Below the pieces are notes generated by a model. The model saw only the letters and a program-made list of their open reading frames with translations, was not told the origin of the DNA and did not search any database. A DNA stretch of 59,534 bases, counting the filler, from Dugesia japonica (lineage: Eukaryota): assembly GCA_001938525.1 (NCBI GenBank). It is 6 parts of 6 records of this genome, joined end to end, with 100 filler letters (N's around TTAATTAATTAA, not from the genome) between each part and the next. Parts side by side here need not be neighbours in the genome. Positions count along the whole stretch, not along the records: positions 48,639 to 59,534 come from MQRL01498732.1; 5 more parts are not named here. The stretch is one strand, 5' to 3'. The position numbers and the translations under genes were made by a program. Within the stretch, counting starts at the first letter, position 1, and each line of letters opens with the position of its first letter. Below are positions 3,301 to 59,534 of the stretch, one piece after another.

Positions 3301-6300
3301 TTTTATTTAAAATACAAACCCATTAAATTAAATGAAAAACCCTGTTATATTTAAAGAGCTTNNNNNNNNNNNNNNNNNNNNNNNNNNNNNNNNNNNNNNN
3401 NNNNNNNNNNNNNNNNNNNNNNNNNNNNNNNNNNNNNNNNNNNNNNNTTATTTGAAAGAATTATGTTTCTTCTTTGACTGATAAACACTTCTAATTTCAT
3501 TTGTATATTTTAGCTTTGCAAAAAAATGATTTCAGTAATATTCAAGCAAAGAAATCCTTAAATTCCGGTAACATATATTTTTGCAAATCTTCAACGTCTA
3601 ATAAGGAGTTTGCCATTAAAGTTTTGGCAGTAACATTTAATGATATCAAAAATGTTGAAAAAAATATTAATGAATGCACGAAAGATTTATCTAATGAGAG
3701 AATCGTCAAATACTATGGAGTAATGGAAAATCAAAATCATTTACAAGTTCTCATGGAATATATCGATGGAGTAAGTTATTTATATTACTTCTTTTCAATT
3801 ATAAATATCATGTTTATGTTGTTTTAATACTAAATTATTTGTAAATTCGTAAATTAATGAAATAAATGAATTCGAGTGGGATTTAGCGATGAAGAACATT
3901 TCCGAGTACAGTTAAAATCTCCGTTTTAACCAGTCATAGTTGTAGTTCCATTCGACAAAATGGGGTTGAATAGGATACTGTTAGAAACTGATCTTGTCAC
4001 AATTCATTTGGATTAATATTTTTTTGAATTATACGTTGAAATGTTTGTTTTTTAATATTTCTTTATTAAGTTTGTTGATTGCATCTGTTCTGTGACAATG
4101 ATGAAACAATTGTGATACTTATTTCTGATGATAATTCAGAATAAAAAACAAAATTTTGGAAACTCTTCCTTTATAAAATATTAACGAAAAGTTTAAATAA
4201 TAAAGAAANTTTTTTTTCGTTTCTTCAGTTCTAAAAAAATATATTATTGATGTATAATAAGGAAAGCGCTGATAAACAGAGAAGAGAACTTGTGCTTGTT
4301 TCATATGCAGTATTTAATGCATTTTTATAAATTACATGAAATGTTTTTGATAATTGTAAGATAATTTTTAAAAGCCAATTTGAATTTTTTGTGTTACTAG
4401 CAAAATTTATTGGAATCAGTTTTGTTAAATATTTAAATTTGTATTATAAATATAATTTATAAATAGATAAATTATCATTTTCATTATTTATAAAAATAAC
4501 CAAATATGTATTGAAATTTTTGTAATTTTGTTAATATTCTTAAAATTTTCAAATTTTATATATTTTTAATGTATTTTTAATTATTAAAATTTTAGATAAT
4601 ATAAAAGATACAAAATTTTAAATATAATGGATTATAAAATATTGTCAATGAAATGTTTTTTTCTGTATATTTAAATTTGACATTAGAAAAAAGCAAATTA
4701 ATCTAAATAATTTTGTTTTGTGAATATATTTTCTATGGAATTGAGTTTTGATAATTATGATCTGATAAGTCAATTTTATAGAACTTCAAACTTATCTAAC
4801 AATAATAATAACCTTATTATAATAATAAAGGCGCTACCTCCGTACTGTATTATTTTCTTTCATCTTTTCTCTTCATTTTTGCTATGATTTTTACAATATA
4901 CAAGAAATGTTTAATTGAGTCCGCAATGAAGTGTAAATGCCAGTATGTTATGCTATATAGTATTCCTTACTATTTCTTTTATTGTATTGGCATAATTATT
5001 ATAAATTAGATACACTATATTNNNNNNNNNNNNNNNNNNNNNNNNNNNNNNNNNNNNNNNNNNNNNNNNNNNNNNNNNNNNNNNNNNNNNNNNAAATTTG
5101 AATGTAAAAACATTTTAACGTAGTCAAAAGAGTTGTTTGTACATTAATTGTTGAATTATGAAATCTAATCTCCTCTGATAATTTATTTTCAATTGAATAT
5201 GTAAAAATAAATAATTTTATTGAATTGGTAAACTCAAAACTTAATTCCGATAAATTTCCATTTAACTTTAATTATAATAATAATTTTTGAAAAACAAGAG
5301 GTAAATATTGAATAAATTAATACTAGTCGGTTTTTTTTAAAATTTTATGTGTAAAACATATTTTAATAAATTTGATATTGGTATTTTTAGATTTCTCTAC
5401 ACGATGAAATACTTAATGAGAAGGTATTATCTTGGATTACCACTATGAATTACACAAAACAAATACTCCAAGGACTGGAATACTTGCATGGTAAGGGTAT
5501 TGTTCATAATAATTTACAACGTAATTTTAATTTTTCATTATACTTTATTATTTTTAGTTTAGCATCTAAAATCTTGTTAGACAATGCTCACAATATAAAA
5601 TTAATAGATTTTATTGAGTATAAATCTACACTACCTAACCTTGATCCTTCATTTCGTGGAATTGTTAATTTTATAGCTCCAGAAGTAAGAAAAGGAAATT
5701 GTTACAAACAATCAGCAAATATTTGGTCTTTGGGAGCTATAATTGTTAATATGTTAACAGGTTTGCCAATGTATTAATTGTATTGAAATATATTGATAGT
5801 AATAATGATTTTCTTAGATATTATATTAACTGATACAAGAAAAATGGCTACAGATTTGTATTTTTAATAGTATGTTAATCATGGTTGTCAAATAAGTGTC
5901 ATCAGATAAATCAATTGAAAATAAAACATTAAGTGAAATAATCTATCAAATTATTTCCTCATTCGTTGTTAGATCAACAAATAGATAACAAATATGCCTG
6001 ATGTAAGCGGTAGGTCAAAGCCTGTATCACAGGTGTGCGCTATGTCATCAGTCTGATTTTTACANTATTTAAATAAGTTATAAAATGAACCATTTAAAAC
6101 TTTAACAGAGAAACTATTTAAAATTAATTTTGCAGTTGTAAATAGGAAATAAAGTATTAATTTTAAAATTAACTGCTATTATTTTACATATGGAAAACCT
6201 TTGATTATGAAATGTTAATAACAAGTAACAAAACATTGAAAAATAATCGGGCGCGTAGTCAAAGCATGTAGGTGAAAGAAGAAAAATCATCGCACTGGTG

Positions 6301-8949: not shown

Positions 8950-10559
8950 GCGCACGAATTTCCCTATCGTTCCATTCAAACTCAACGTTTAAAATAACTA
9001 TTTCCATTACTAACTTTATTGCTCCAAATATTTTTTGTCACAACCTGCTTCCTCATCTATGAAATTTATTTTAGCTTCATCAATTATTCCTGTTTTACTG
9101 GTTTCTGAATTGTTATATTTAGAATGAATATTTATTTTCAGGCCAAAAACTATTTCAAAAAGAGAAAATTTAATCGAATTCTGCTGAGTTGCATTAATGC
9201 TGGATTCAATTCTTGGCAGTAATTCAAACCAAGTCCTTTCTTTACATTTATTTTTTATTGATGTTGTCATTATATCTCGTACCGTTCGTATCACTCGTTC
9301 TACCAAAACATTTGATTGGTGTTGATAAGGTGAAGTTAATTCTTGTATTATATTCAGTTTTGATATCTTTTCTTTGATAAAATTGCTTTCAAAATTTTTT
9401 CCTCTGTCTGTCAAAATACTGATTGGCTTTCCGTTACGATATATCCAATTATTCAAAATAACTTTGAATACAGATTGATCACCTAATTTAGATATTGCTG
9501 TTAAACCAACTAATTTGCTAAATCTGTCTACAATAACAACAAGATACTTTTTATTAAACTCAGTTTGGTTCATATATGCAATGTCTACGGCAATTTGCTC
9601 AAGTATATTATGACTTTGTCTAGGAATCAGTGTTTCTTTAGTACGACTTTGAGTAATTTTCATTTTAGCACAAATTATACATTGTTTTTAACACGCTTGT
9701 ATTGTATTCATCATTGATGACCAAAAACAATGATCCTTAAGATAATTAAAAAATTCTTTCCCTCCAAGATGTCATAGATCGTTGTGTATCATTATTACTA
9801 ATACATTAGCAAATTTCATTGGTACTAAAATTAATATATGTTTACCGTCTTCCTTAACAAATAAATCATCAATAATTTTCAAGTTTTCAATACTTTTATA
9901 CAGGTAACTATTTTTCCAGATTTCTGAGCATTCCGTAATTTCACTAATTAAGTACCTTTTAATTTTGACTACTTTTAATATTGTCCACAAAATTCAATGT
10001 TTGGTCTAGACCATTTATGTATTTAACTTTTAACTTGCTGTTTTTTGGCATCTTTGTGTTTCGTTTCACACTGCGAACATAATACATCAGATATTCTTGA
10101 TAAAGCATCTGCATTATTATGCTCACTTTCTTTTCTATATTGAAGATCTAAATCATACTCAGAAAAATTGGCCATCCAAGTTTGAAATTGAGGACTTATC
10201 GGTTTTCTTGTTGTTTTCATAAAAAATAGAGCTTTGTGATTAGTTCTAGCGATAAATTGTTTGCCATATAAGTATTGTTTAAAATACATAACATATTCAT
10301 GTAACGCTAATAATTCTTTTCTAGTAACACAATAACCTTTTTCATGAGAAGAAAGATGTCGTTATCCAAATGCAATTACTGTTTCATCACGATTTTCTTT
10401 AATTTGACTTAATACAGCTCCTATTGCTCCAAAAACTAGCATCTGTATATAAAATAAACATTCGATTTTTTCTAGGATAATCTAAAATAGGTGCAGAACA
10501 TAATTTATTTTTCAAGTCATTAAAACTTTGATCGCATTCATTTGTCCAATAAAGTTTTT
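8950..10559 (-). mobile_element. Ty3/Gypsy retrotransposon pol fragment (RNase H + integrase), disrupted
   Basis: RNase H (HEKGYCVTRKELLAL, RTNHKAL, NADALSR) and integrase core (IAVDIA, VIVDRFSK, ILTDRG, TSPYQHQSN..VERVIRT). Frameshifts and stops present. Confidence 0.9.
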
Positions 10560-10576
10560 NNNNNNNNNNNNNNNNN

Positions 10577-12495
10577 ATATAATTAATTAACTAATTAATT
10601 TAAATAATATATGTATTGATATTTATATATGTATTTATATTTGTGTCACATAATTCGCATCATAAACTCTTCGAAAGATAATTGATATTCCATCTTATGT
10701 AATAATAAGAAATGGAAATTATTATATCATAACTTAACCTATGATAAATCAAATCATAGGTTGAGATGTGATATAAATATATATATATATATATATATAT
10801 TTCGATGAATCAGAAGCGATTCAGAATATATTTTGATATCTAATAAATATTTATAATAGATTTGTGTTTTATCTTAACCCAACATGGCGACATCACAGGC
10901 TCTAATAAACAGACTGGTACAAGATTTATATGATAGAAGAATGGATCTAGAAACCTTAATTTCAGATTGCTGGAGATTTTTCGACGTCGCAAATATTGAC
11001 AAAAATTCAAGAGGATTAATCATCAAAACAATGAACAACAGAGAATTGATTCCAGTATATCAAGCAGTTGACATCAAAATTATCAGTTTAGAAGAAAGAT
11101 TGAGAAAAGCGTTTCAAAAGCCATGTTCCCTTATTAGTGATCTTAAAGAAATCATGGAATACCGAAAAGGATCGACTACTGCGGAAAATTATTTTGAAGA
11201 TGTAAATCGTATGACGGAAAAATTATTGCGACACAAATGGGANAAAAATGAACTAACAAAGTATTTTTTAATTCATTGCGTTGATGACAAAGAAATTCAG
11301 AAAGAAATAAAAATGAGAGAAGCAACAGATGTGCCAGAAATTGAAAAAATTGTTAAAAAGATCGATAGTATTATGATGGATGAAGAAGTTGCACCAATAA
11401 GACGAGTTACATTTGCAGAGGTGGCAGGGGTGAGAAGAAATTTAGAGAATATCAAAACAAGAATTTAAAACCTCCTCATGTGAGGGAACATCAAATGCCT
11501 AAGAAAATAATATGTTGGACATGCGGATTTAAAGGTCATTTTTTCACGACAATGTAGAATGGTGCCAAATGTAAGACGCTATGCTTGTAATGAAGAAGGG
11601 CATATATGAAAAAATTGTCATAAAGTCAAATCAGGCCATTTGGAAAAACAGTGTTATTTCAAAACTGAATTTTAAAGACATCAATTCAGAAATAGATCCA
11701 ATACAAGACTTAAACGAGAAAATAATCGAAATGATAATCCATAAAACTTTTATGCGAACAGAGAAAATGGGAACAGAAATGAAGATTATGGTAACTATCC
11801 GCAAAATTCGTTATTAAGAGAGTACAAGAATTCAGTTGATAACAATAGACAAATCCGAGTAGTAGTTGTAGATGAGGATTTCTCGGATGATCAAGAAGAA
11901 ACATTCAGATAAAATTACCCAAAAAACGAGTCTCGACCATGCGAAGAGAAGATCAGAGCCATGCAGTAAAAGATGGGATTATGTTGACACAAATTGTTCA
12001 TATTATAATAGATGTAGTGATAATACGTATTATATGAGTAAATTTGATAACAATAATGTTAATAATAAATTTTAAAAAATTAAATATTTTGATAATGAAA
12101 ATTTGATGATTACGGATAATGATTTAAATAATGATAAAAATTTTAATAACTTTAATAATAAGGATTTAATTGAAAATAATTATTTTGATAATAGAAATGT
12201 TATGATTAAAATTAATGATTTAGATAATGTTGTAATGTTTAATGATAGTAATTTTTGCCGTAAAAAATAAATTAAAATGAATTATTTTGACAAAGGAAAT
12301 TTTATGATAAAAAATAATAACTTAAATATTGATAAAATAAATTATCCTTGCAGAAATGGGTTTATGGATAATAATCAAAAATCAATAGATAAAAATAGAA
12401 TTTTAACTTCGGAATTAGAATTGATAGACAAAAGTATTGAAAGAAATAGTGATGAGGTATTTGAGGAAAATTATGAGATTTTAGAAAATTTTGAT
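10577..12495 (+). mobile_element. Ty3/Gypsy 5' portion: LTR-like segment, PBS-like TGGCGAC and gag with CCHC zinc knuckles
   Basis: ORF 10884-11468 is gag-like. Downstream CWTCGFKGH.. and CYACNEEGH..C knuckles are frameshifted. CA|TGGCGAC at 10883-10891. Segment 10577-10681 recurs in reverse complement at 40397-40483. Confidence 0.75.
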
Positions 12496-34320: not shown

Positions 34321-37078
34321 TCAATAATAAGTTTCGTTTTCTTGAGTTTCTGCGATTAAAGCTTGATCTTCAGGTAAAGGACATAATCTATTGCCAGCGG
34401 TGGAGTTTTCATCTGATATCCACTTGGGATATGCGTGGTGGGAGATCTTGATTTGATTTCGACAAATCGGACACTGATTTAATCTTGCAGCACACATTTC
34501 ACAACAGACAATGTGCATACATGGAATAAATACCCTGTTTATTTTTCGGTCTTTGCATACCACGCATTGTACTAATTCTCGAAGCATCTCCAGTTCTTTT
34601 CGCATTTCTACAACAACCTGAATACAATAAATTAAAGAATTGAAAACATTTAGATTCAATTTATTTAATATTTCAAATGTTATTAAAAATATTACAATAG
34701 ATCAAAACACGAAGAAGTTAAAAAAAAAGAAATCCAGATTTGATTTTATCGAAGCATTCAGAGTACTCGCATTTTTCAAATGAAGAAAAAAGTTAAATGT
34801 TTCATTTCTTCAAAAATTTTTCATTAAAAGATCTATAGAAAAATTGACGATTGGATTTATTCAGTAACATTCAAGCTTTACAAGTTGTATCATTAAGAAC
34901 AATTGAAGATTTTGAGGATAATGAGAAGTGTGACTACCAACTATATTTTAATTAGACTTAGCTATTACTATAAAACATGAATTTCATTAGGAGTCAGTGA
35001 AAAAAATAACCATCTATGAGCCCGTGTATCTTCAAAACAACATTCTCTTCTTATAGGCTTTCTGGTGATATTTTAGCTAAGAACCCCCTTGTCCCCAACT
35101 GTACATCTAAAGCAACACATCGTTATTAAATATAGAAATAGCATTAGTCATCTATGTTAGCACTGTTCAATTTCTACAGAAGTTCGAGACAATTTTTTAC
35201 AACAAGCCTTAGTGGGCCATATCTTCTGTAAATTTTAGGGTTTTAAAAAAAAATTCCTGTTTTCTTCAAGCTACTTTAATTGAACCTTTTCTGCAATGCA
35301 ATAACTTAAAATAAAACAGTTTTGTCATTTGGTTCTTTAATTAAAATAAAATTCACAAATTCATTTTATTTTCTTTTATTCATATTTATTTTCAAAATTA
35401 TTAAAAAGTCTCGCGGGCCGTCATGTGGACAGTGCTGATCTATGTTATTGACGCCAAAATATTTTATAAATGATGACATTTAATTTACAAAATTTTTGGA
35501 TCATATCTAAAAAATGACCCCAGGGGTAGAATTTGAACATTTTTATTATTATTATTATTATGTATTTTTTAGTGTAAATTAATTTTAGGATCAAACTTTT
35601 AATATGTATTTTTTGAATATGTTTAATTTAATATTTTTTAACACGTGATATAAAAATTACTATAAATGATTTGTTATAATAAATAGTAAATTTAAATAGC
35701 AATCAACATGTTCACTCATTATGAGGAAAAGATAAGAGTCTTACTGGAGTTTTGTATGGAAATGCCAAAATAAACATTGTAGTGACTATAAGACTACAAC
35801 ATCCATAAAAAAATATTTCATTTTTTGGTAGTTTCACAATCGATCTTAAAACTTGATTGGAGAGAGTATTTGTCAGATTAAAAAGTCGATATCGATTGTG
35901 CCATCTACAATAATTAAAATCTTCAAACTGTTGAGAACCTATGTGTCCAACTATCCAATTAAATTGCGAGGAGAAAATGTTGAATGTCAAATTGACGAAA
36001 GCTTATTTTGTCATAAGCAAAAGTATCATCGAGGCAGATTTTCAGATTCCCAAAAATGGGTATTTGGAATTGTAGACTGCAGTTATGTTCCAGCTAAAGG
36101 ATTTATGCATGTGGTACCTGATAGAAAAGCTGATACTTTATTGCCAATAATTACTCATATGAGTATAAATATTTAAATTTGTAGATCGTTGTTAATTTTG
36201 GTTTGATTTATTTAAAGAAAGAAGCGTTCGATGTAATATGGGATGTTATTTTTGTGAATGTAACTAGACACTCTCGTCTTTACAAAATTGAACCAAGGAC
36301 TATTGAATTCACAAACCTTAGATAACCTCAAAAATCTCATTAACAATGTTTCATTTATGTCTTGATTTTTACGATGCGTCTTTAATTTTTAATCAGAATT
36401 TTAAGAAATTACGGTTTTTAAAAAAGTTTTAGAATCCTGTTACAAAATTTAATAAAAAACTATGCTATCAACACAAATTGTTAAACTATTTGTTTTTGAA
36501 AGTCCCATTTAAGTTAACAAACATTAAATTATTCAGCCAAAATCTATTAAGTGCAGAGGGATATTTTCTAACTAATCCAATTTTTGGTTATTTATATGAT
36601 AAATCGGTTGCCACTTTGTATTTTCTTAACAAGTCAACTATTAGTAACATTTTTTAAAATGTTTTTTTTGGTACCACACTAGATTTATGTTTGATTATAG
36701 CAAAATATTGATAAATCAGTAAACAGTCATACATGATCGCTATGATGAATTCAGATAAGAATTAAAATGATAATTTATGCAAATGTTAGCAATATATCTT
36801 CAAAATACTATTTTTGAGAATTATGTATTATAAATAGTTTTATAGTTATAAATAGTATTATAAACTCAAAAACAAAAATTTTAAAATAAAACTATCAGTA
36901 ATTATTTTTACTTCGTCACTGGCCTGTGAAGATTCTGGATTTTTCGGAATTACATCATTAGAAGTGTGATTAACGGTATTGGTTGGACTGTTATTTGATG
37001 AGTAACTGTAAGCTCGACGACGAGCAGAATCGTAAACTTCTTTCTGTGTTTTTACAATATCGTAAAAGTAAGACCTAC
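34321..37078 (-). CDS. MYLIP: MYLIP/IDOL (Dnr1)-like FERM-RING E3 ubiquitin ligase, last two exons 37078-36912 and 34617-34321
   Basis: Exon GRSYFYDIVKTQKEVYDSARRR resembles MYLIP [21 protein letters not shown]. It splices in phase to a C3HC4 RING CVVCKDRKINRVFIPCMHIVCCEMCAARLNQCPICR. FERM exons were not located. Confidence 0.8.
35158..35437. mobile_element. hAT-type MITE (280 bp) with perfect 8-bp TSD ATCTATGT
   Basis: Ends tagcactgttca / tggacagtgctg. ATCTATGT at 35150-35157 and 35438-35445. Confidence 0.85.
35853..36176 (+). mobile_element. Merlin / IS1595(ISXO2)-like transposase fragment inside the MYLIP-like intron
   Basis: VECQIDESLF..KQKYHRGR..KWVFGIVD..VPDRKADTLLPII is the characteristic Merlin N-terminal DDE block. 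Confidence 0.85.
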
Positions 37079-40491: not shown

Positions 40492-40910
40492 ATGATGATA
40501 TATTTAAAATTGGACGTATTCTTGCTATCAGATTTTTTTCAACAATTGCGAGCAAATTCGCTAGCGCACAACAATTTGGACTCATTGGCATATTTTGGAA
40601 TCCCATGTATGAGTTGGGCTTCTGCGTTAATGACTCTAAATCAACCGATTGAGCTTTGGACGGACAATTATAAGTTCACCTTTTTTGATGGCGGAATAAG
40701 AGTTGGACTCACCTTTAAAAATAAGCATTATGTCGTCGCAAATGATGAAACAAAATTGTTGTATATTGATATCAACAGCTTATATGGTTAAGCATTAAGG
40801 CAAAAGTTGTCCTATAAAGATTTTGAGTAGATTTATTCGGATTTGGATGTAATATTGGAAGAATGTAAGTGAGCAGACCTGGAATCATTATCCTACAGTT
40901 ATACATTAGT
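40492..40910 (+). pseudogene. Polinton/Maverick-type protein-primed DNA polymerase B fragment
   Basis: YLKLDVFLLSDFF (Exo III), GIRVG and LLYIDINSLYG (pol motif A). Collinear with ORF 54093-54458. In-frame stops downstream. Confidence 0.85.
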
Positions 40911-42347
40911 TATTAATTTTTTTATTATTTTAAATAGAATTTTTAATTTTTTAAGTATGTTTTGATATTAAAAAAATTTTAATTATTATTTTGATCATTT
41001 AATAACAATTGAAAAGAAAAAAAGTATAATTATTTTATTTAAATTAATTTAAATCATTTATTAAAAATTTTTTAAATAACATTTACATTCAATTTTAATT
41101 TCGTGAACTATATATGCATCCTGCTTCATATTTTGATAGAATTATCAGTCCAATTGTACTGACAGATGTACAAAAAACAGAATTCGAAAAGTGTATAATG
41201 ATTACATGAGTGAACTGATATATGATGAAAGGGACATGCCCAAGAAATTTTCAAATTATTTTTATTTACTTGCAAGAATCCTCTGAGCTCTTGAAAAAAA
41301 AGTTAATTTTAATTAAATTTACAAATTTATTATTCATGAATTTATAAATGTTAATAACGTTGTTTCTAGATTAGAAGATAGTTTTCAAATAAACGACATA
41401 ACTTTCAAGAAAAAATAAGAATAACAATACTTAATTAATGTTTCTTTGGATTTTCTATTGTTATATTTTTGTTTTGTGTATTACTATTATTATTTTTTAT
41501 TTGCTTATTATTTATATTATTATAATATTTATTATTTTTGTTATTAATATTGTTATTATTGATTAAACTTTCAGCAGTTCAGACGCCTTTTAGGTTTCTT
41601 TTAGAAGAAGCGTATGGAATTTGTCAATACTATGATTCATCCACCCATCAGGAATTATTAACTTCCATTAGGGACAAGACAAAAGTTAAATATTTTATTT
41701 AAATATTTCATATTTTAACGTAGTATTTCTAGATTCAAACTTGGTTTAACAATAAAAGGGCCAAGAAGAACTAATTACTAAAGCGTTTAAATGTACAAGA
41801 GCGTCATAATTTATTATTATTTTGAATTAATGTCTTTGTCAAGATAGACTTGTTAGTAATATATTTGTTATTGACCAAATTGTATATGCATGCCACAAAA
41901 TTTGCATGTACTTCACTTCATTGCTTCGGTACATTTCTTGGGCCGGATTCGCTCCATAGCATTTTTGTGCTATGAAAGTGGCCTATTCCCTATCTCAGTA
42001 AGTCTTAGGAACATCTATCAGTAGTTTGTTGTATTGCTATTTGTACTTTTAATTTGCTATTCTTTTTTCTAGGTTCACAGAGTCAAGGTCTGACAGTTTT
42101 TTTCTCTTTTTTGGTCGCTTAAAATTCTTTGTGCCTCGACTTCTTTTGAACCACGAATATTGCAATATTTAAAATTTCCATGAGTTCCGATTTACTGGTG
42201 GTTTATTAAAAATACAATAAATCTTTATCGTAACAAAAAAACCAGAAACCACATATAATCCGTTATTAATTATTACTTTATTATTTTACGCCGTAGTTCC
42301 TTATTGAGCATAATTTCATTCTGAATGACAAGCCAATCTTTAAAACT

Positions 42348-46142: not shown

Positions 46143-47088
46143 ATGTCAGACCATCTAAGCAACACCCTACGTCTCATTCGGAAACAGCGAAAAACGACCA
46201 GGCTAAGGCAATTGTTGGCCCACCTATTGAATCCCGGGCATATTGAACATCCCGACGAAACGGATTTGTGTTGTTTCGTCGAGATGTTTCCCCAGAAATC
46301 AAACGTGGATCTCGATGATGAAAATCGGCTGTTTATCTAATTCCAATTTGATCAAAATAAATCATTAGTTAAAATTATTGTAATCAATCATGTAATCGAT
46401 GTGGTGTTTTGTATTACATTTAATTTACAGACTAGAAATAATTTAGATGGAATGTGTGGGAATCACTCTTTGACAAACGTACCAACAGAGTAGTTTTCCG
46501 CAGGTATTGGAATCCTCACGACCGGGACGCAGGAATTTTAGCCGATTATTCGAACTTGTCACCGGAAGACGCCGAGAACCAACGCCATGGGAATGAGACC
46601 AAACGACGTGCGTTCTATGCATGGAGTGGCCCTGACAGCACCAGGGAAGTGTACCATGCTGTTTCAAATCGCCAAGTAACTGAGAATGGCCACACTCGAA
46701 GTATCAGTGAGTGGCGAGAAGGCCCCTCCTTTATCAAGTATCTGCTGCTCACTTGCCCCCTTCCATGGTTATAAGTGCCAGTATCAGCGATACGTTATGG
46801 GAGTTGAGAAATCGTGTCGATAACCGAACGTGCCTTACTCAAACACCTTACACACGCAACAAATTAATAAAAAAGCTGGACCACATCGTTAAAAAGCAGG
46901 GAGATCTCATGGAACAAACGAAACAACTCCTTCAAAATAAGATCGATTTTTTAAAAATGTACATCGCGGATCTATTCCGCCAGTTAGGTAATGCGTCATG
47001 GTTGCAATGGGATGATAATGCTGTATTTGATTTTATTCAAGAGGAGCCTACCCAGTGGTTAGACCCGGGTGTTCTCGAGGAGATGTGA
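46143..47088 (+). CDS. Orphan ORF chain (46143-46340, 46447-46774, 46711-47088), possibly one spliced/frameshifted gene
   Basis: Locally GC-richer, protein-like composition, with an intron-like AT-rich GT..AG segment at ~46380-46446. No recognised domain. Confidence 0.4.
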
Positions 47089-47351: not shown

Positions 47352-47695
47352 ATGGATAATTGCATTAATGTGTTCGTAGCTGGGGGAGAAAAACGATATT
47401 ATAAAGTAAGATTAATTACAAATTTAATATTTAGGTAAAAACTCAATCTTGGGTTAATAAAATTCTAAAGGTCAAATATGATCATATTATTGGGATAAAT
47501 TTTGATGTTGATCCAAATACAGTTTATCAAGAATATTTCTTGAAGAAGACTAATGAAAAATATGAGTATCATATTAATGACGACGTTTTAGTCAAAGATC
47601 TCAAATCATTAAATATGTTTCGTCCCGCCAAAATAATAGAGTGTCTGGATTCTGATGCCATAATAAAATATAAATTGTCTGAAATCAAAACATAA
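47352..47695 (+). CDS. Small spliced ORF (exons 47352-47405, 47435-47695; 104 aa) with a Tudor/SH3-like C-terminal pattern
   Basis: ATG..YYK|GTAAG..(29 nt)..TTTAG|VKTQSW.. stays open for 86 codons. YHINDDVLVKD..FRPAKIIE resembles beta-barrel (Tudor-like) signatures. Not present in the ORF track. Confidence 0.45.
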
Positions 47696-48638
47696 AAACT
47701 TGATTATACTTTAATAATACCCATGCCAAGTTTTATTTCGCCGACTGTGAGATTTTTCAAGGAAATATGTTAAAGATAAATGGCAAATATCCCTATGAAA
47801 AATATGAAGATGAGAACTCAATTAATTAATTTAGTCCATCAAATTCGTCCATCAGATTTAGTTGGAAACTCAGGTTTGAAAGCAGTTCTAAGGGGATCGA
47901 TATTACTGGCAATATATGAAATGGATTCGGTGCAGTTTATTCTGTTATTAAGTGATGTTAATAATCACGAAGTAAATCACCACTTCACGTCTTCTCTCGT
48001 CCAACTTATCAATACAATAACTTACTCAATATCGAAGAATAGTTTAATCCTTGCATATTTAATGATCCATGTCACAACAGTATCCCCTCTAGCTTTCACG
48101 ACATAAGCTGTCCTTTCTTCATCTTATTCTTGACGACTCAAGATGCAGGATCATCTTCGTCTGAGTGGAGTATATTTTTGGGGGAAAAAAACAATTAAAA
48201 CCCGCAACAATAGCCATAAACACGCAACACAAAACATAACATCAAATAATCATATAATACAAATATATACATGCAAACAGACACAACAAACAGTTCAAAC
48301 AAATCACGACATGAACCATCAGATCAATAATCACTTTAGTCTGCTCTAGAAACTTAATAAGAATAGTAATCAACTCAATTTCTCTAGATGTTGTTCGATT
48401 TAACATTTCAATCTTGTCAAACATTAAATATGATTCTTTATATATATTCTTTATGTATATTAAATTTGACCAAAAGTCATCTCCTTGAAAAAATTTTATT
48501 ATTTCTAACGACAATGAATTCTAATCCAACAACAAACANNNNNNNNNNNNNNNNNNNNNNNNNNNNNNNNNNNNNNNNNNNNTTAATTAATTAANNNNNN
48601 NNNNNNNNNNNNNNNNNNNNNNNNNNNNNNNNNNNNNN

Positions 48639-50425: not shown

Positions 50426-52134
50426 CCGTGTTTTCCTAACTAAAAAACACTGCCTTCTATTTCCAGCCTTTCAAAATTGTATAAAAATAGGTACACCGCC
50501 TTTTATTTGGGTACTGCCTTCTATTAAATTTCTATAAAAATTAGAAAGAATGTTTATAATTATTTTGTTTTTTGTAAATGTAAAAAAAAATATTTATAAT
50601 TTTATTAATGATAATATAATTTATTCATCAATCACAAATACATCGTCAGCTTCTTCTTAAAAGGCATCTGTCATCACTTGTATCATATTTTGGCTATCAA
50701 CAAGAGAACCAAACTTTTCATGCTTCATGATTGCCGAAAGAAGATACATGTATGAAGCAATCAACACATTGTTAACTACTTCAGGTGTTATTTTATCCCA
50801 GGCATTTTTATTCCACGTCGTGACTTCATCAAGACTTGGCTTGATAGGATTCCCTCTTACATTTCTCTTCATACGGTGTTCAATGAAATCATTAATTTCA
50901 TCTCTAAGATAAATCTTGAATGAATGGTTAATTACCAAATCAAGACTTTGAAGATATGCCGTAAGGCCAGATGGTATTATAATAGAATCGATCTTTCTAA
51001 TGCGCAAATTCTCCTCCATGCCCTTTGCACGATGAGTGGATGCGGAGCCCAAAAAAAGAAGACGTCTCATGTTATTAAAAAATCCTGATTTGAGATTTCT
51101 GTCCAACCATTGTTTGATAATTTCTTGAGTTGCCCAGCCTTTTTCGCATTCAACAATATCGATACCGTTAATACTTGAAATTCCATTATTTTTCCATTAG
51201 AAATGATCATCGGTGTAACCTTTGTACTATTACGCCTTATTGCCAAAATACATGTAACTCTAAATGACCCGGTTGCTGCAATATAAATAGAACCTTTTCT
51301 CGTCATGTCAACTGTTCTTTGATTGATATTTCCATAATATACTGCTTTTTCATCCATGCATATAATATTAGAATTACTTTAGTTTGTTAAATTCGTATCT
51401 TCAATAAACTTCTTGAAAAACAAAGCTCGTGCAACAACCTGATCATCTTGAATTTTAAACAGGGTTGTCGGTGCACGCAAAGACAAATGAAATCTCTTCA
51501 CGAAGTTAGAAAGCCAATGAGAACTCGCCTTAAATACACTTCGCAAGTTGAAGTGTAAACGCCTGGATATATCCGCGAATCACCATCAATCCACGGCTGC
51601 GTTTGTCTACAATCATGTCGAAGATATTGTCCTCCAGTTCTTCAATGATTGACTTGCGGCCAGCTCCGGACTTTCTACATTTCATATACTGATAACCCAA
51701 ATGTTCCTCCCCGACATCACTTTTCCATTTTGAAATTAGTCTGATATGAATGTTATTCTTTTTTGACACTCCAGAAAGTGACTTATGTTCGAGTTTGCTG
51801 ACAATCTCTTTTTTATACTCAATGCTATATGATTTTCTTCTGTTGGTCATTAATTAACGGCTTGGTAATATAAACGTTTTAAATAATGGGTATATAAAAT
51901 TTATTGGCAATCGATTTTAAGAAAATAATCTATAAAATATATTATGTTGTCTTTTCAACTTTTGTCAAGATGGCTCATTGACATTATTTTGCTCCTTTGA
52001 ATACTNTTAATTATTGAAATTCTTTATTAAAATCTATACCGCCTTCTATTCGGGCACTGCCTTCTATTTCCAAATATTATAAAATTCGCTACTGCATTAT
52101 ATTCGAGTACTTCCTTCAAATAGGGAAAACACGG
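50426..52134 (-). mobile_element. pogo/Tigger-type DNA transposon (1.7 kb), frameshifted transposase
   Basis: TA|CCGTGTTTTCC ... GGAAAACACGG|TA. Brinker-like DBD (RRKSYSIEYKKEIV), CENP-B HTH, and DDE_1 motifs (MDEKAV, IPSGLTAYLQSLDLVIN..FK). Subterminal (C/T)GCCTTCTATT repeats. Confidence 0.92.
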
Positions 52135-53363
52135 TAGTTACCTTTCTTAGCACAAACTTTGGCATATGCTGTTTGCGTACTAAGTGATATCTAATTAAGG
52201 ATGTAAGTATAAACACGAAACAGTCGATAAACAATTTCTACCATAAACTTATTTGTAAAACTAAATACGGGGTTATGTGACAGAAAAAAAGTCAATAAAA
52301 ACTAATTTACTTAACGGTTATCCTATTATTTGCTGTATTTATTTTTCTGCTATTGAAACATTGAAAATACCTTTTGTTTGTCAAATTCAAAACGATTAAT
52401 GATCTGTTGAATGCTAAAATGGAATATTCTTATACCTATTTTTTTTATATTTATATTATTATTTTCGTATACATTTAAATTATATCTTCATTTATTTTAA
52501 ATGCAATTATTAGTATTAATTTTGTTTAATATTTTCTATTTTAATTATTAATTATAATGAATTAATTTAATCATTAATTAAATTGAAAATTAAATTAACC
52601 AGGTTCTTTAATATAATAAAAAACATAAACTAAAAATAATTAAATTAAACTAAGAGAAATAAAAACGAATCAGTTTTTTTTCAGATTATAAGAAATATAT
52701 TTCATATCAAAATAAAGGTGCTGAAAATGGAATTAGACTCGCGACAGTGAAAATTAACGCGAATTTTCTTTGATGATACGAATATAATTAATCAGAAATA
52801 ATGGATAAAAATTGTAAAAAAAAATAATTCAACTTTTATTATATAAATTCATTTTTTTAATTTATTTTGAAAAATAAATTTTATATTTTTAAAATTACAT
52901 TTTTTTTAAAAGATTTCATTTTAATTTATGATATTTTCATCCTCTGCATATTACGATAATTGAAAATCTTCTGTTATCATTTTAAAATTATTTTTATCGT
53001 TTTCATTGTCATAATAGACTTTGATTAAAATTTTTTAATTAAAATGTTTAAATTAATCGGTTATTTATTGAATATTGAAGAATTTTTGCATATTCGAAAT
53101 AAAACTAAATATTTGTAATTTGTTTTAGTTAAAAGTTTTTTTAAAAACATTTTGCTTATTAGAACAATTAGATTCTTCCAATTGAAAATGTCGATTGTAG
53201 TTTTCTATTTGTTAATAGCAATTCAAACAAAGGTCATTTGTTTTTGTTTAAATTAAGTGAAATTAACGATTTTTGTTTAAATTGATTTTCTTCATAAAAA
53301 ATTTATGTAATTATTTTTAATTAAATTTAAAATTAAGTAAAATTAATTAAATCCAATCAAAGT

Positions 53364-56300
53364 AGTACATGGATAATTGCGCTCTGGACCACCCTCTCCC
53401 CCTCCCAAAAAAGAAAATTTTAACTTTGCGGATTTTTAACGTTTTTATTGCCCAACCACACGTTTTTAGAGTTTTTGATTGGCCAAAATTTTAAGGTCAA
53501 GGTCAACTGGCCTCAATTTTTGACGAGTTATCGTTGTGTTATTATGAGGTCATCGTAGGGATTTCATGTCAAGGTCATTTGTTTTTGTTTAAATTAAGTG
53601 AAATTAACGATTTTTATTTAAATTATTTGATTTTTATGATTGCTTTAAATTTACAGATTTTTGAGATTTTTATTTAAATTAATAGATTTAATGATTTTCA
53701 TAATTTTTCACAGAAGATCGATGGTAAAACCTTTTTTGTTAAAATTTTTAAATTTTGAAGTGAATTTCCCCCTGCCAATATTAAGATTAGATGCTTCTTA
53801 GACAATCTTAATAATAAAATATAAAAGACTAATCAAAACATAAAACACTTTGTTGATAAAACACATAATCTTCAGTGCACTATGTAATTGAACTTTGAAT
53901 AATGAGTCAACATTAATTTTTTGACCTTGCTTCCTGGAGCACATTGATGTTCGGCTGCTTGGGTAAGTCACTGAGGTAATCGTGAAGTTCGTTGGGAATC
54001 TCTATGTCAACTTCTAGAGTGTATCCATATTGTAACGACTTGAGATCTGCATATTTACATTCTTCTAAAACTTCTTCTAATCTACAATATACCTATTCAA
54101 AAACTTTGTATGGTAACTTCTGACTCAAAGCCCAACCATACAAGTTATTTATATCGATGTATAACAACTCTGTGTTTTCATCTAAAATAACATGGTGTTT
54201 GTTGACAAAGGTGAGTCCACCTCTAATTCCATCTTCAAAAAAGGTGTACATGTCGTTATCAGTCAAAAGCTTGATGGTTTCATTTAAAGTCATCATAGCA
54301 GATGCCCAGTTCATACCTGGAATGCCAAAGAAATTTAAGGGTTCCAGATGGTTGTGAACTAATGACTTGGCTCGGAATTGCTGAAAATAGTCAGCTAGAA
54401 GAAAGACGTCCAACTTCATGTACACCAGCATATAGTCCAGTAAGTTTTTGCATTTCAAGATTTTTCACATATCCACCACTTTTTTATGTTCTTCATTACT
54501 AACTCCATCCCATTTGGCGGCATTTTATTTGTATTAATCAGCACTTGTAAACTGGTAGCGTGATTGTATGGGGAAATCCTTTTTGTCCTTATAATTCTGT
54601 TGTCAATAAATTCATGTGATGTTAAAGGAGTTTTTTTAATGGTTTTAACAGCTGAATCTAGAGATGATTTGATAAATTGATTTGAATCAATAAATCGAAT
54701 AGTAGGTAACTTTGTTTGATGTACAATAAGACAAAAGAACTTTTCACTTGTAGTTGGAATAAAGCCAAGGCCCCAATGTGGCAACTGACGGACTCCATAC
54801 TTAAGAATATGATGCATGTCATATCCTCTTAAATTATGGAATACAACCGGTAACTGTATATTTATTCTTCTGTTTAGATTGCAACTGTTGCATGCTGCAC
54901 CCATGTATTCACCTCTGCAACGATTGTGGTCTCTAACAGAACTTACTAATGATTTCTTACATAAATGACATGTTTTGGTAGCAACAAAGCAAATTTCTTG
55001 ATCCAGAGTTATATTCATTTTCTTTTTACCATTATTCATATAATACAGATGCACAGTATTCTTGCTGATTTCCTCAATTTCTTTCAAAAATTTAAAAACA
55101 CAGTCGCTTCCGATTAATTTTTTATATTTTGTTTCGTTAATGTAGTTGTTAACTAACAGAAGTCCGGCATAATAGGTAAATGCTTTTGATAATAATCTTC
55201 ATGTGGTGATAATACTGATTCAAAATCAGCGTATATAGCACATGGAGAACTTATAGTTTTTGAGTAGTCTTTAAATTCTAAGTTAGGATCGGTCGGCATG
55301 GTATATAACGTGTTACCTGTCAGGATTGTACTACAAAGAGGTTCATGTTTTTCAAAAGCTGCATTATCTCGGAATCCATTTAAACAATTAGAGCACTATG
55401 TTGACCGTATTCGGACACCATTCTTTTTAATGTCTCTATTCATGAGTCTATAGAGATTTATTATGTTTGTGTAATGTAACTTTTGTTTATCTTCTAATTA
55501 TAATAAATTTATTTTTCTTCCCTTAGTTATTTTTGATCTATGAATTATGTCAAGATTTGGATGTTTCATTACAATATCATCGTCTTTAATGGCTTGTGAG
55601 TTCCAAGAGAGTACATTGATAGATAGTACTGGGTTTTATTTTTCAAATTTCGGAATGTTCACCAACTTCATTGGCATTTCCTTTAAATCGAATACAAGTT
55701 CTGACATGTATATTTTATATTTTGCTACTTGATACTTAAGATTTCTACCAACCATATCTTTTTTAAGCACAGAAAGAATAATATAGATGAAACCAAAATT
55801 ATCTGTGTTCTGAACATTGATTATTATTTGTTTTCTCGCAACGTCACTAGGAGTTGGAATATAACTGCTTCCCGTAAGACAACTTATATCACTAGTCTTT
55901 GTTTTCTTAAAACTTATTTCTAAGATACGAGATAATGTCCGACTACTTCCTAACTCTGAAATAATAATTATCTTTTCATTCATTGAATCGATGCCTTCTT
56001 CGAAAAACTTATCGCTTAAAGGGACTGCTCTTTTCGATAATCTACATGTTTTTATTTCTTCATCCTTGACGAATTCCGTATCTATTCCAAATTTTATTTT
56101 AACACTCTTCATTTCTTTCAAACATTTATCTATTAAACTATCCGGTAAAATTATTTGTTTCATATTTAATTTGTACACGTCAAGTTTCAATATTTGATGA
56201 CACTTATAAAGGTCACTTTCTATAGTAGGTTCATTAAGAAAACTGCCAACTTGCGTATCTTCTTCATCTAAAATATTTTATAAAAATATATCTGCATCTC

Positions 56301-57391
56301 TTTCTGCCTTATTTACTTCATTCATTTCTTCGATTATTTCAACATTACTCCAATCTGGTTCATTAATGACTTCTAATTCCTCGATAACATTCACTTCTGG
56401 ATCTAATTTTATTTTTTACATGTAATTTCGTCTAATATTTCAAATAATAATTGTTTATTACCAACAATAAAACATGTCAAATGATGTGCATGCAACCTAT
56501 AAAATTTATCATATGTACTAAAACCTAGTGTCGTGCATGCTAAAGTATTTCTTCATCATCTTTATGGCAGTCAACATTATGTCTTGTATTAGTACAGTAG
56601 TTTTTGTACAGTAAACATTTATCTTAAGGAATATATAACTCATTAAATTGCTATATAATTATAATCAAATCAATAAAATTACAATTAAAATCGATAAATA
56701 TATTCAGGTAAAATCATACTAAAAAGTAATAAAAACTTAAAAATATATATTTATCATTCATTAATATCAGAAAGTTAAATCATTAAATTAAATTAAAATA
56801 ATTCAGTTTTATCATTAAGTTCAATCATTTAGTTCAATTAAAATCATGAAGTTAAGTAAAAATTATTAAGTTAAAATTTGATAATATTATGTAAAATTTA
56901 AATCATTACAATAAAATTAAAATGATAGTTAACTTAACAATTTAAATAAAATCATTACAATAAACATTGTATAGAATTAACTTAATAATACACTAAAATT
57001 TGATATTTTTATGTTACGTTTTAATCATTACAATGTTAATAATAAAATATAAAAAACTAATTTTAATATTGCCAGGGGGAAATTCACTTCAAAATTTAAA
57101 AATTTTAACAGAAAAGATTTTCCTATCGATCTTCTGTGAAAAATTATGAAAATCATTAAATCAATTAATTTAAATAAAAATCGTTAATTTCACTTAATTT
57201 TAACAAAAACAAATGACCTTGACCTTAAAATTTCAATCAATCAAAACTTGACCTTAAAATTTAGGCCAATTAAAAACTCTAAAAACGTGTGGTTGGGCAA
57301 TAAAAACGTTAAAAATCGGGCCCAGTTAAAATTTTCTTTTTCGGGAGGGGGAGGGGGAGGGGGTGGCCTTGAGCACCACTATTCATCTACT
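53364..57391 (-). mobile_element. Internally deleted Polinton/Maverick-type element, 4028 bp, with long TIRs and 6-bp TSD
   Basis: CAAAGT at 53358-53363 and 57392-57397. Termini AGTAC.. / ..TCTACT. Inverted repeats ~53364-53785 and ~57063-57391 enclose a pPolB pseudogene. Confidence 0.92.
53875..56190 (-). pseudogene. Protein-primed DNA polymerase B (N-terminal region, endonuclease VII-like Zn domain, exonuclease, motif A); C-terminal half missing
   Basis: GSSYIPTP..INVQNTDN, YADFES (Exo I), CHLC..VRDH..GAACNSCNL, FHNLRGYD (Exo II), RFIDS, YMKLDVFLLAD (Exo III), IRGG, YIDINNLYGWA. Frameshifts present. No KxxxNSxYG or YxDTDS before the TIR. Confidence 0.9.
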
Positions 57392-58622
57392 CAAAGTTTA
57401 AAAAGTTAAAAGAATTTAAAAATTATTCGCTCTTTTATTTTTCATTTTTTCACTGATTTGACAATTTTTTCTTCATTCAAAGCTTTGCTTCTAGTTTGTT
57501 TCTAATTCAAATTCGTCTTTCATATTTCACTTTTTAAAAATATTAAACATTTTAAAAATATATTATATCACATGTTCTAAATAATTCATATCATATTTGT
57601 ATAATGTCTTTTATTACAGTCTTGTATCAAATGTTTATTTCATCTACATACATCGCAATTCTATCTCTGTCCATTGATTATTTGGTGGCTCAAAACAAAT
57701 TGCCGTTCTTAACTTTTATTAAAGATTTAACACTAATACCAGAGTATAATAAGCTATACAGTGTTTACATGAGATTGAAAATGAATTAACTTATCAGAAG
57801 AATTGTTACCATTACACAGGATAACATCGTCAGTATGTTTCAGCAACTTCTTACATTCATCTCATATCGTATCAGAAAACAAACTATTGTATGATTCTAT
57901 TAAAATTATATAAAACTGCTCAAAGGTTGGAAAGATTTTATTCCTGCGATATGTTTCGTAATTTCTAAATACAAAACGATCTTGTAAATTGAGATCTGGT
58001 TAGTAGGCAAGTTGTCTTAATAATTTAATACCGGAATTAAATCCACGCATTTACCAAGTATTGCGAAATAGCAGTTGGTGAAAACCCATTGTATATCATT
58101 GTTTCTATAAAATAGTGTAATTTCTAGTTCCATTATTGCGATATTTGAAATCTTAGATATAATTATTAACAGTTATGATAAATTAAAACGAGATGACTTT
58201 TACAAACATGATACTTTAGTAAATATTAGTAAAAATCATAAAAATTAGGCCATTTTTATGGGAAACAGTATATAAATTTGTAGTTAATAAAAATTAATTT
58301 AAATCAAATTATTTCAAACTAAAAATCTTTCGTTCATGATTAGAATAATGTTAAAATATTGAACAATCTTTTAAATTAGAAAATAAAAATTTTGATCTTT
58401 GTAATCTGAAAATTGTATGTCAAGATTTTCTATATTCAATTTATATTATTTTCAAAATTAATGATGATAAATCTATTATGAGAAAAATTTAATTGAAACA
58501 GAGGAAACGATTTACACATTATCAGATTGAAATGAAACTTGTTAATTATTTGCTTAGTATTGCATGCTGATAGGTCTGGCAATAGATTAAATATTCGTTT
58601 TAATTTGTATTATTATTATTAT

Positions 58623-58880
58623 TTAATGTGTTAGTTAATGTGTTAGTTAATGTGTTAGTTAATGTGTTAGTTAATGTATTAGTTAATGTGTTAGTTAATG
58701 TGTAAGTTAATGTGTAAGTTAATGTGTTAGTTAATGTGTAAGTTAATGTATTAGTTAATGTGTTAGTTAATGTATTAGTTAATGTGTTAGTTAATGTGTA
58801 AGTTAATGTGTAAGTTAATGTGTTAGTTAATGTGTTAGTTAATGTGTAAGTTAATGTGTTAGTTAATGTGTTAGTTAATG
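58623..58880. repeat. 12-bp minisatellite TTAATGTGTTAG (variants TTAATGTGTAAG, TTAATGTATTAG), ~21 copies
   Basis: Seen directly. Confidence 0.95.
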
Positions 58881-59534
58881 CGTTAAGTTGTTTAGTAAAG
58901 AATTTATGCAAATTTATGCTTACGAATTCGCGTTCTAAAGATTTATAAAAATTTATCTAGATATTATAGATATCTAGATTTTATAGAACTGTATTTTAGT
59001 TTAAAATGTAGTTTTTAATATTGAGAAAGTCTCAATATAATAATGAGAATACGATAAATTAATTCATGTGTACAATTGTACATGTAAAAGCATATTGATG
59101 AATAGTTAAATAATTAGAAAATGAATACTTTCAGTCAATAATTTAGTCAAATAAAGCCACATCATATGTACAAAATATCTGTTATACGAATAGATAATTA
59201 TTTTATTTTATCNNNNNNNNNNNNNNNNNNNNNNNNNNNNNNNNNNNNNNNNNNNNNNNNNNNNNNNNNNNNNNNNNNNNNNNNNNNNNNNNNNNNNNNN
59301 NNNNNNNNNNNNNNNNNNNNNNNNNNNNNNNNNNNNNNNNNNNNNNNNNNNNNNNNNNNNNNNNNNNNNNNNNNNNNNNNNNNNNNNNNNNNNNNNNNNN
59401 NNNNNNNNNNNATTTTAAATTAATCAAATAACCTTTAATCAGCTTACTTTTTAATCAATAACTTTTTTAAAACAAAAATAATTAAATATATGTTACTGTC
59501 TAGAATAAACTGTATTTTGAAAAAAATAAAACCA

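Follow-up and report, generated by a model that had tools for sequence, protein, structure and literature searches.

A decayed 4-kb Polinton remnant retaining both ends and its target-site duplication in Dugesia japonica

We analysed a 59,534-nucleotide stretch of DNA from the planarian Dugesia japonica (assembly GCA_001938525.1), hereafter the window, which joins six parts of six records with 100 filler letters between each part and the next, and along which all positions are counted. Within the part taken from MQRL01498732.1 lies a short element of the Polinton/Maverick type (53364-57391). This element is an old and decayed Polinton-derived remnant, not an autonomous Polinton: it retains both ends, a target-site duplication (TSD) and three-quarters of a protein-primed family-B polymerase (pPolB), and this copy cannot replicate or integrate by itself. 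We favour, with a probability of roughly 0.6, a history in which a full-length element inserted here, later lost its middle through an in-place deletion that left a fold-back-like junction, and then decayed neutrally.

Ends, arms and polymerase relic

The element is 4,028 bp long and free of N throughout, begins with AG and ends with CT, and is flanked on both sides by an exact CAAAGT (53358-53363 and 57392-57397, both on the + strand). Given the local flank composition, two flanking 6-mers would match by chance with a probability of 0.0015, and these features agree with the original prediction of an exact 6-bp duplication and AG..CT termini around 4.0 kb. Global alignment of the two arms placed the left terminal inverted repeat (TIR; 427 bp, starting AGTA) at 53364-53790 (+), and sequence self-comparison together with the same alignment placed the right TIR (335 bp, ending CT) at 57057-57391 (-). 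The arms run in register from base 1; 300 of their 325 aligned positions are identical and 25 differ, a further 112 columns are gaps, and 8 of the mismatches fall in the outer 28 columns. Blocks of ~60 bp and 56 bp are present in the left arm and absent from the right, which carries a 29-bp tandem pair at the place of the left arm's extra block. Long arms, predicted at 330-420 bp, are thus present; the description of the ends as intact does not survive these mismatches and gaps.

The end hexamers are AGTACA and AGTAGA rather than (AGT)2 or (AG)3, a motif that was described for vertebrates, so that the mismatch weighs little here. An alternative parse of the left end, reading AGTAGT from 53361, was rejected because 53364 is the base from which the two arms are in register, and only with the end placed there is a TSD obtained.

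Arm-like sequence also occurs outside the element. A 58-bp piece at 53230-53287 (+), 70 bp upstream and outside the left duplication, is oriented like the left arm and is 96.6% identical to 53571-53628 and 94.8% identical to the right arm; it may be an older neighbour or a templated copy. An older arm-like fragment at 6564-6678 matches 53584-53692 at 74%. Within the arms themselves, AGGTCA hexamers, which we take to resemble nuclear-receptor half-sites, occur 4 + 3 times (53490-53580 and 57210-57260), as compared to 21 times in the remaining 58.6 kb.

The pPolB relic occupies 53866-56537 (-), as judged by tblastn of six relatives, the count of stops and Pfam, and its N-terminal part (56439-56537) is supported by a single weak match (29.6 bits). 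One stop-free piece of the relic matches Pfam DNA_pol_B_2 (E 3.7e-7), and another has 41 relatives among 999 candidates, with a best identity of 51-52%; the best relatives are 1242 and 1256 amino acids long and carry DNA_pol_B_2 and an Endonuclease VII domain. By tblastn, similarity to these two proteins extends from residue 20 or 67 up to residue 915 or 921 and stops at 53866-53869, about 50 residues ahead of the relatives' motif B as placed by motif patterns. The retained share is ~72-74% of the relatives' length, with the motif B and C region gone, and therefore exceeds the "half a polymerase" that had been proposed. The accompanying claim that the gene is truncated and frameshifted proved correct: there are 7 in-frame stops in 879 codons and at least three frameshifts, the clear ones lying near 55170, 54513 and 53960. 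A fourth frame change falls in the weakly matched N-terminus and may be an intron; a 59-bp GT..AG stretch at this place (56403-56461, -) is a candidate short intron. Elsewhere in the window, a second, unrelated pPolB fragment at 40492-40962 (+) has 3 stops in 157 codons and 70.6% DNA identity to the element's copy over 374 bp, and a weak further pPolB piece lies out of order downstream of it, at 41158-41256 (+).

Missing genes and the deletion junction

An alignment of 19 of the 41 pPolB relatives retrieved 12 viral and 80 kept metagenome loci; a single pPolB query (P0001) had found no viral locus. One of the metagenome loci, the 12.9-kb Polinton locus L019, has pPolB at one end, aimed inward, and a module converging on it that contains an rve integrase, an A32-like ATPase and further open reading frames (ORFs). 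L019 likely shows the layout of the element's parent. It also contains a TATA-binding-protein-like gene at its positions 10321-10764 (-; Pfam TBP, E 2.3e-17).

The converging genes have no counterpart that we could detect in the element. The L019 rve ORF gave no tblastn match at E<=1 in 53000-57800, integrase-like matches within the window being confined to 9025-9687, and none of the 11 non-polymerase ORFs of L019 scored above 20.4 bits against 53000-57800. For 1282 ORFs of the 92 related loci, all matches to the element fell within the polymerase stretch, one of them extended to 53716, and among the first 14 blastn matches listed for related loci none lay outside the polymerase. The predicted absence of integrase, ATPase, protease and capsid genes is consistent with this lack of any non-polymerase match, given that the capsid and protease ORFs among the queries, including the L019 capsid candidates, received no Pfam name. 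Only ~600 bp of the element lies outside the arms and the polymerase, and the unassigned sequence shrinks to 75 bp once a 519-bp 5' region is counted as well. This region, at 56538-57056, is AT-rich 5' and subterminal sequence with short imperfect repeats, as revealed by self-comparison.

The remaining 75 bp form the deletion junction (53791-53865), bounded by the end of arm similarity at 53790 and the end of pPolB similarity. The polymerase had been predicted to stop just before the TIR; it does end near the left arm, but this complex junction lies between. The junction consists of ~11 bases without assignment, an inverted subterminal copy and ~30 further bases without assignment. The copy is a 32-bp fold-back-like piece at 53802-53833 (+) that matches 57030-57061 of the same strand at 94% identity, and its local score of 54 exceeds the shuffled maximum of 42 (reached by 0 of 300 shuffles). 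Because 57030-57061 sits at the right arm's inner edge, the left piece corresponds to an inverted copy of the arm's expected continuation, and its sequence suggests a fold-back templated insertion at the break. Fold-back junctions arise from host end-joining as well as from polymerase template switching, and the junction therefore does not time the deletion.

Other matches of the junction and arms were set aside. A match of 53811-53850 to 47660-47701 (score 51 against a shuffle maximum of 44, beating 60 of 60 shuffles) was not used, since the stronger 32-bp match covers part of the same bases and the sequence is AT-rich. An 18-base arm pattern matched four viral contigs, none of them similar to the element by blastn, and these matches were taken as chance; a 21-base arm pattern matched no metagenome contigs.

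Sister copies, decay and origin

Part of the stretch is present in 7 of 12 listed public sequencing runs, drawn from 3 studies, with shares of 0.14-0.27. We mapped contigs from four public runs (3 studies) at 85% likeness onto the element with ~25-bp flanks, in bins of 137 bp. All 30 bins were covered in all four runs, and summed depth in the polymerase bins, which does not equal copy number, reached ~6,000-160,000, as compared to 6-32 for the listed long diverged pieces. The parent Polinton family is plainly very abundant. The 5' region at 56538-57056 had the highest mapped depth, and sister contigs there contain a go-back joint from 56997 to 56876. An abundant family that matches arms and polymerase is present in these runs; an intact full-length helper copy was not seen among them.

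To describe how the window's copy relates to this family, we counted the 36 best-supported of 40 listed difference places (349 further places exist), dropping four that were each represented by one contig in one run. In each run, 31-36 of the 36 places had at least 95% of sister-contig depth reading otherwise than the window, with a median differing share of 0.997-1.0 and a median remainder of 0-28. The version carried by the window copy is therefore private and has not been amplified. Among the polymerase lesions, one stop and two frame changes read differently in sister contigs. Of ~20,400 long pieces 32 were listed, and neither the element nor its junction is spanned by any of these; in three of the four runs, one contig passes over an end of the mapped stretch.

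Two depth patterns stand apart from these results. The terminal bins were ~100-fold lower in depth (16-103); C/G runs, divergence or filtering by the mapping tool can each produce such a drop, and we did not use it as evidence. In run X1, polymerase depth at 53888-54435 was ~3-4 times that of the remaining three, with arm depth being similar; another subfamily is perhaps present in that sample, and depth is not a ranking measure.

The arms differ by 7.7%, or 8.1% after correction, which corresponds to 4.1 +/- 1.6% per arm, while the 7 stops imply a pPolB divergence of 4.7-6.7% (95% limits 1.9-13.8%). At the arm divergence, an exact TSD would survive with a probability of 0.62. Because the ranges of the two clocks overlap, no extra decay before insertion is needed, and the similar decay of arms and pPolB fits a single old insertion. 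Near-identical arms, as expected after recent mobilisation, were not found. Together, the arm divergence with its large indels, a pPolB broken in at least ten places and the private differences rule out a young, recently mobile mini-element. The original prediction had left a choice between a helper-integrated non-autonomous derivative and a deletion after insertion; these data remove the young mobile version of the former, and we favour the latter.

Under in-place deletion, a DDE integrase would have created the 6-bp duplication when the full-length element inserted. A single deletion, of roughly 9-20 kb as judged from published intact-element sizes, would then have removed the last quarter of pPolB together with the converging gene module, and the break would have been sealed with a short piece copied in fold-back fashion from subterminal DNA close by, in the manner of templated end-joining; the arms and pPolB would afterwards have decayed neutrally together. 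We counted the other Polinton debris in the window (the pPolB piece at 40492-40962 and the arm-like pieces) in favour of this history, together with the degraded vertebrate loci and the C. elegans remnants compared below. Polinton remnants are widely reported, and loss of the middle after landing is ordinary for Polintons.

A number of observations weigh against it. Mismatches between the arms cluster towards the outside, with 13 in the outer 69 columns as compared to 10 in the inner 233 (scan p 0.003-0.008, or ~0.03 with G/C columns permuted apart, in a post hoc comparison), which is not predicted by uniform decay, and the middle blocks of the two arms differ in structure. The inner arm alone gives ~2% per arm; if it is the better clock, decay has gone further in the interior than at the ends, which a non-autonomous lineage would show. 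The ends may come from two subfamilies, or the interior may be older than the ends. Moreover, the fold-back junction can also stem from polymerase template switching, and private decay dates the copy and says nothing on the timing of the deletion. Lastly, two of the four runs each contain one contig in which 53784 is connected to 53823 across unknown letters, at a depth of 22-30 and with no more than 23 letters on its shorter side; this hints faintly at a related junction in another place.

The differing arms would also fit a deleted, possibly chimeric molecule that arose by an extrachromosomal template switch, was integrated once by a helper and decayed without amplifying, an origin that we consider possible though unlikely. 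In its chimeric version, the left end would possibly derive from one subfamily and the right end with pPolB from another; given the exact TSD, two ends of different origin must have joined before integration, and the fold-back piece at the junction is in keeping with such a switch. However, the outer clustering is mostly gone if G/C-rich columns mutate faster, the indels fall within short tandem units, in which slippage is to be expected, and a like pattern would arise by ectopic conversion from an abundant family or if the family's arms were unequal by nature. Less likely still is the specific proposal of a defective-interfering-like 4-kb Polinton, in which a template switch joined the ends of two subfamilies via a fold-back and a helper integrase then inserted the product. 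Behind both of these we place, as improbable, an old non-autonomous family with a common junction, copied and inserted in trans by full-length helpers. The element retains both cis-acting ends, the runs contain a large helper family and, in two of them, the faint low-depth joint over the junction, and names such as Polinton-1N1_DR appear in print (in the passages of PMC9341505 that bear on this). Yet that joint has a depth at the level of one to few copies, and the 7.7% arm difference implies no recent mobility. In three of the four runs, junction-bin depth falls between what the no-cover and the full-cover models predict, and thus above the former, but it is under the full-cover models in all four and at the no-cover level in one; it is a weak measure, since bins are 137 bp wide and a very deep repeat is matched by the 32-bp piece as well.

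We consider it very unlikely that the element is short because repeat copies were collapsed during assembly. In favour of such a collapse, the window is draft sequence with many stretches of N, the element is spanned by none of the listed contigs, and only 0.14-0.27 of its words are found in the runs; the element itself, by contrast, is free of N, one contig passes over an end of the mapped stretch in three of four runs, and the exact, in-register TSD on both sides argues against a collapse between loci (0.0015), while a collapse inside one locus would be compatible with it. At 31 of the 36 difference places a low-depth remainder was found in at least one of three runs, which speaks against collapse without establishing the window's letter. 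In-place deletion of a full-length insertion remains the reading that we prefer.

The rest of the window contains further features assigned by Pfam: kinase exons (3495-5777), a retrotransposon-like rve integrase region (9016-11468), a RING-finger ORF (34321-34701) and a DDE_1 transposase piece (50657-51196). Two G+C-richer ORFs, at 46442-47088 (+) and 47435-47692 (+), have no Pfam match above the cut-off, and the end of the second is similar to a portion of the junction filler. At 58557-58952 lies a tandem array with ~30 units of 12 bp.

Significance and comparison with known systems

Polinton replication and integration are still inferred from gene content. A dead remnant matters little in this regard, as most Polinton loci are fossils; a shared junction, or ends from two subfamilies, would, if true, make the element matter. 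If a deleted molecule was integrated in trans, it would reveal the cis-acting sequences that suffice, and a chimera would be a fossil record of Polinton co-replication, recombination and trans-integration in an animal germline. Cis-acting requirements could be tested well in a host that carries hundreds of copies or more.

The N in Repbase names such as Polinton-1N1_DR marks non-autonomous families, and the founding Polinton paper reportedly described such families. These Repbase Polintons resemble the element in keeping their ends and lacking integrase, and differ from it in being families of copies, whereas the element is described here from one copy. Our literature search, whose scope covered neither supplements nor the founding paper, found no small pPolB-retaining Polinton family and no match to the phrase "nonautonomous Polinton". 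Planarian Polintons have been reported as piRNA-silenced (in the relevant passages of PMC8532177).

With L019 the element shares a related pPolB (37-59% over four pieces) with its Endonuclease VII insert, end position and inward direction; unlike that of the element, the pPolB of L019 is open, and it faces a converging module whose genes are without match in the element. Remnants in C. elegans likewise originate from the pPolB end and vary in size; at 10 loci they keep a TIR and pPolB but lack integrase (bioRxiv 10.1101/2024.01.15.575659). In contrast to the remnants in the passages of that report, the one described here shows both arms plus a TSD around it; theirs are tied to host-gene rearrangements, of which there is no evidence in the window.

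According to the passages of PMC8097293 on intact vertebrate Mavericks, these are 12.7-24.6 kb long (12,723-24,620 bp), carry arms of 46-1,447 bp and are flanked by 6-bp TSDs; of 3,511 vertebrate loci, 96% are counted as degraded. At 4,028 bp the element falls short of the ~13-25 kb of intact Polintons, and it further differs from the vertebrate elements in its end hexamers and its invertebrate-type host. It resembles them in its 6-bp TSD, in its AG..CT ends, in arms that lie within the vertebrate range, and in the stops and frameshifts that accumulate through host mutation (PMC8097293, same passages).

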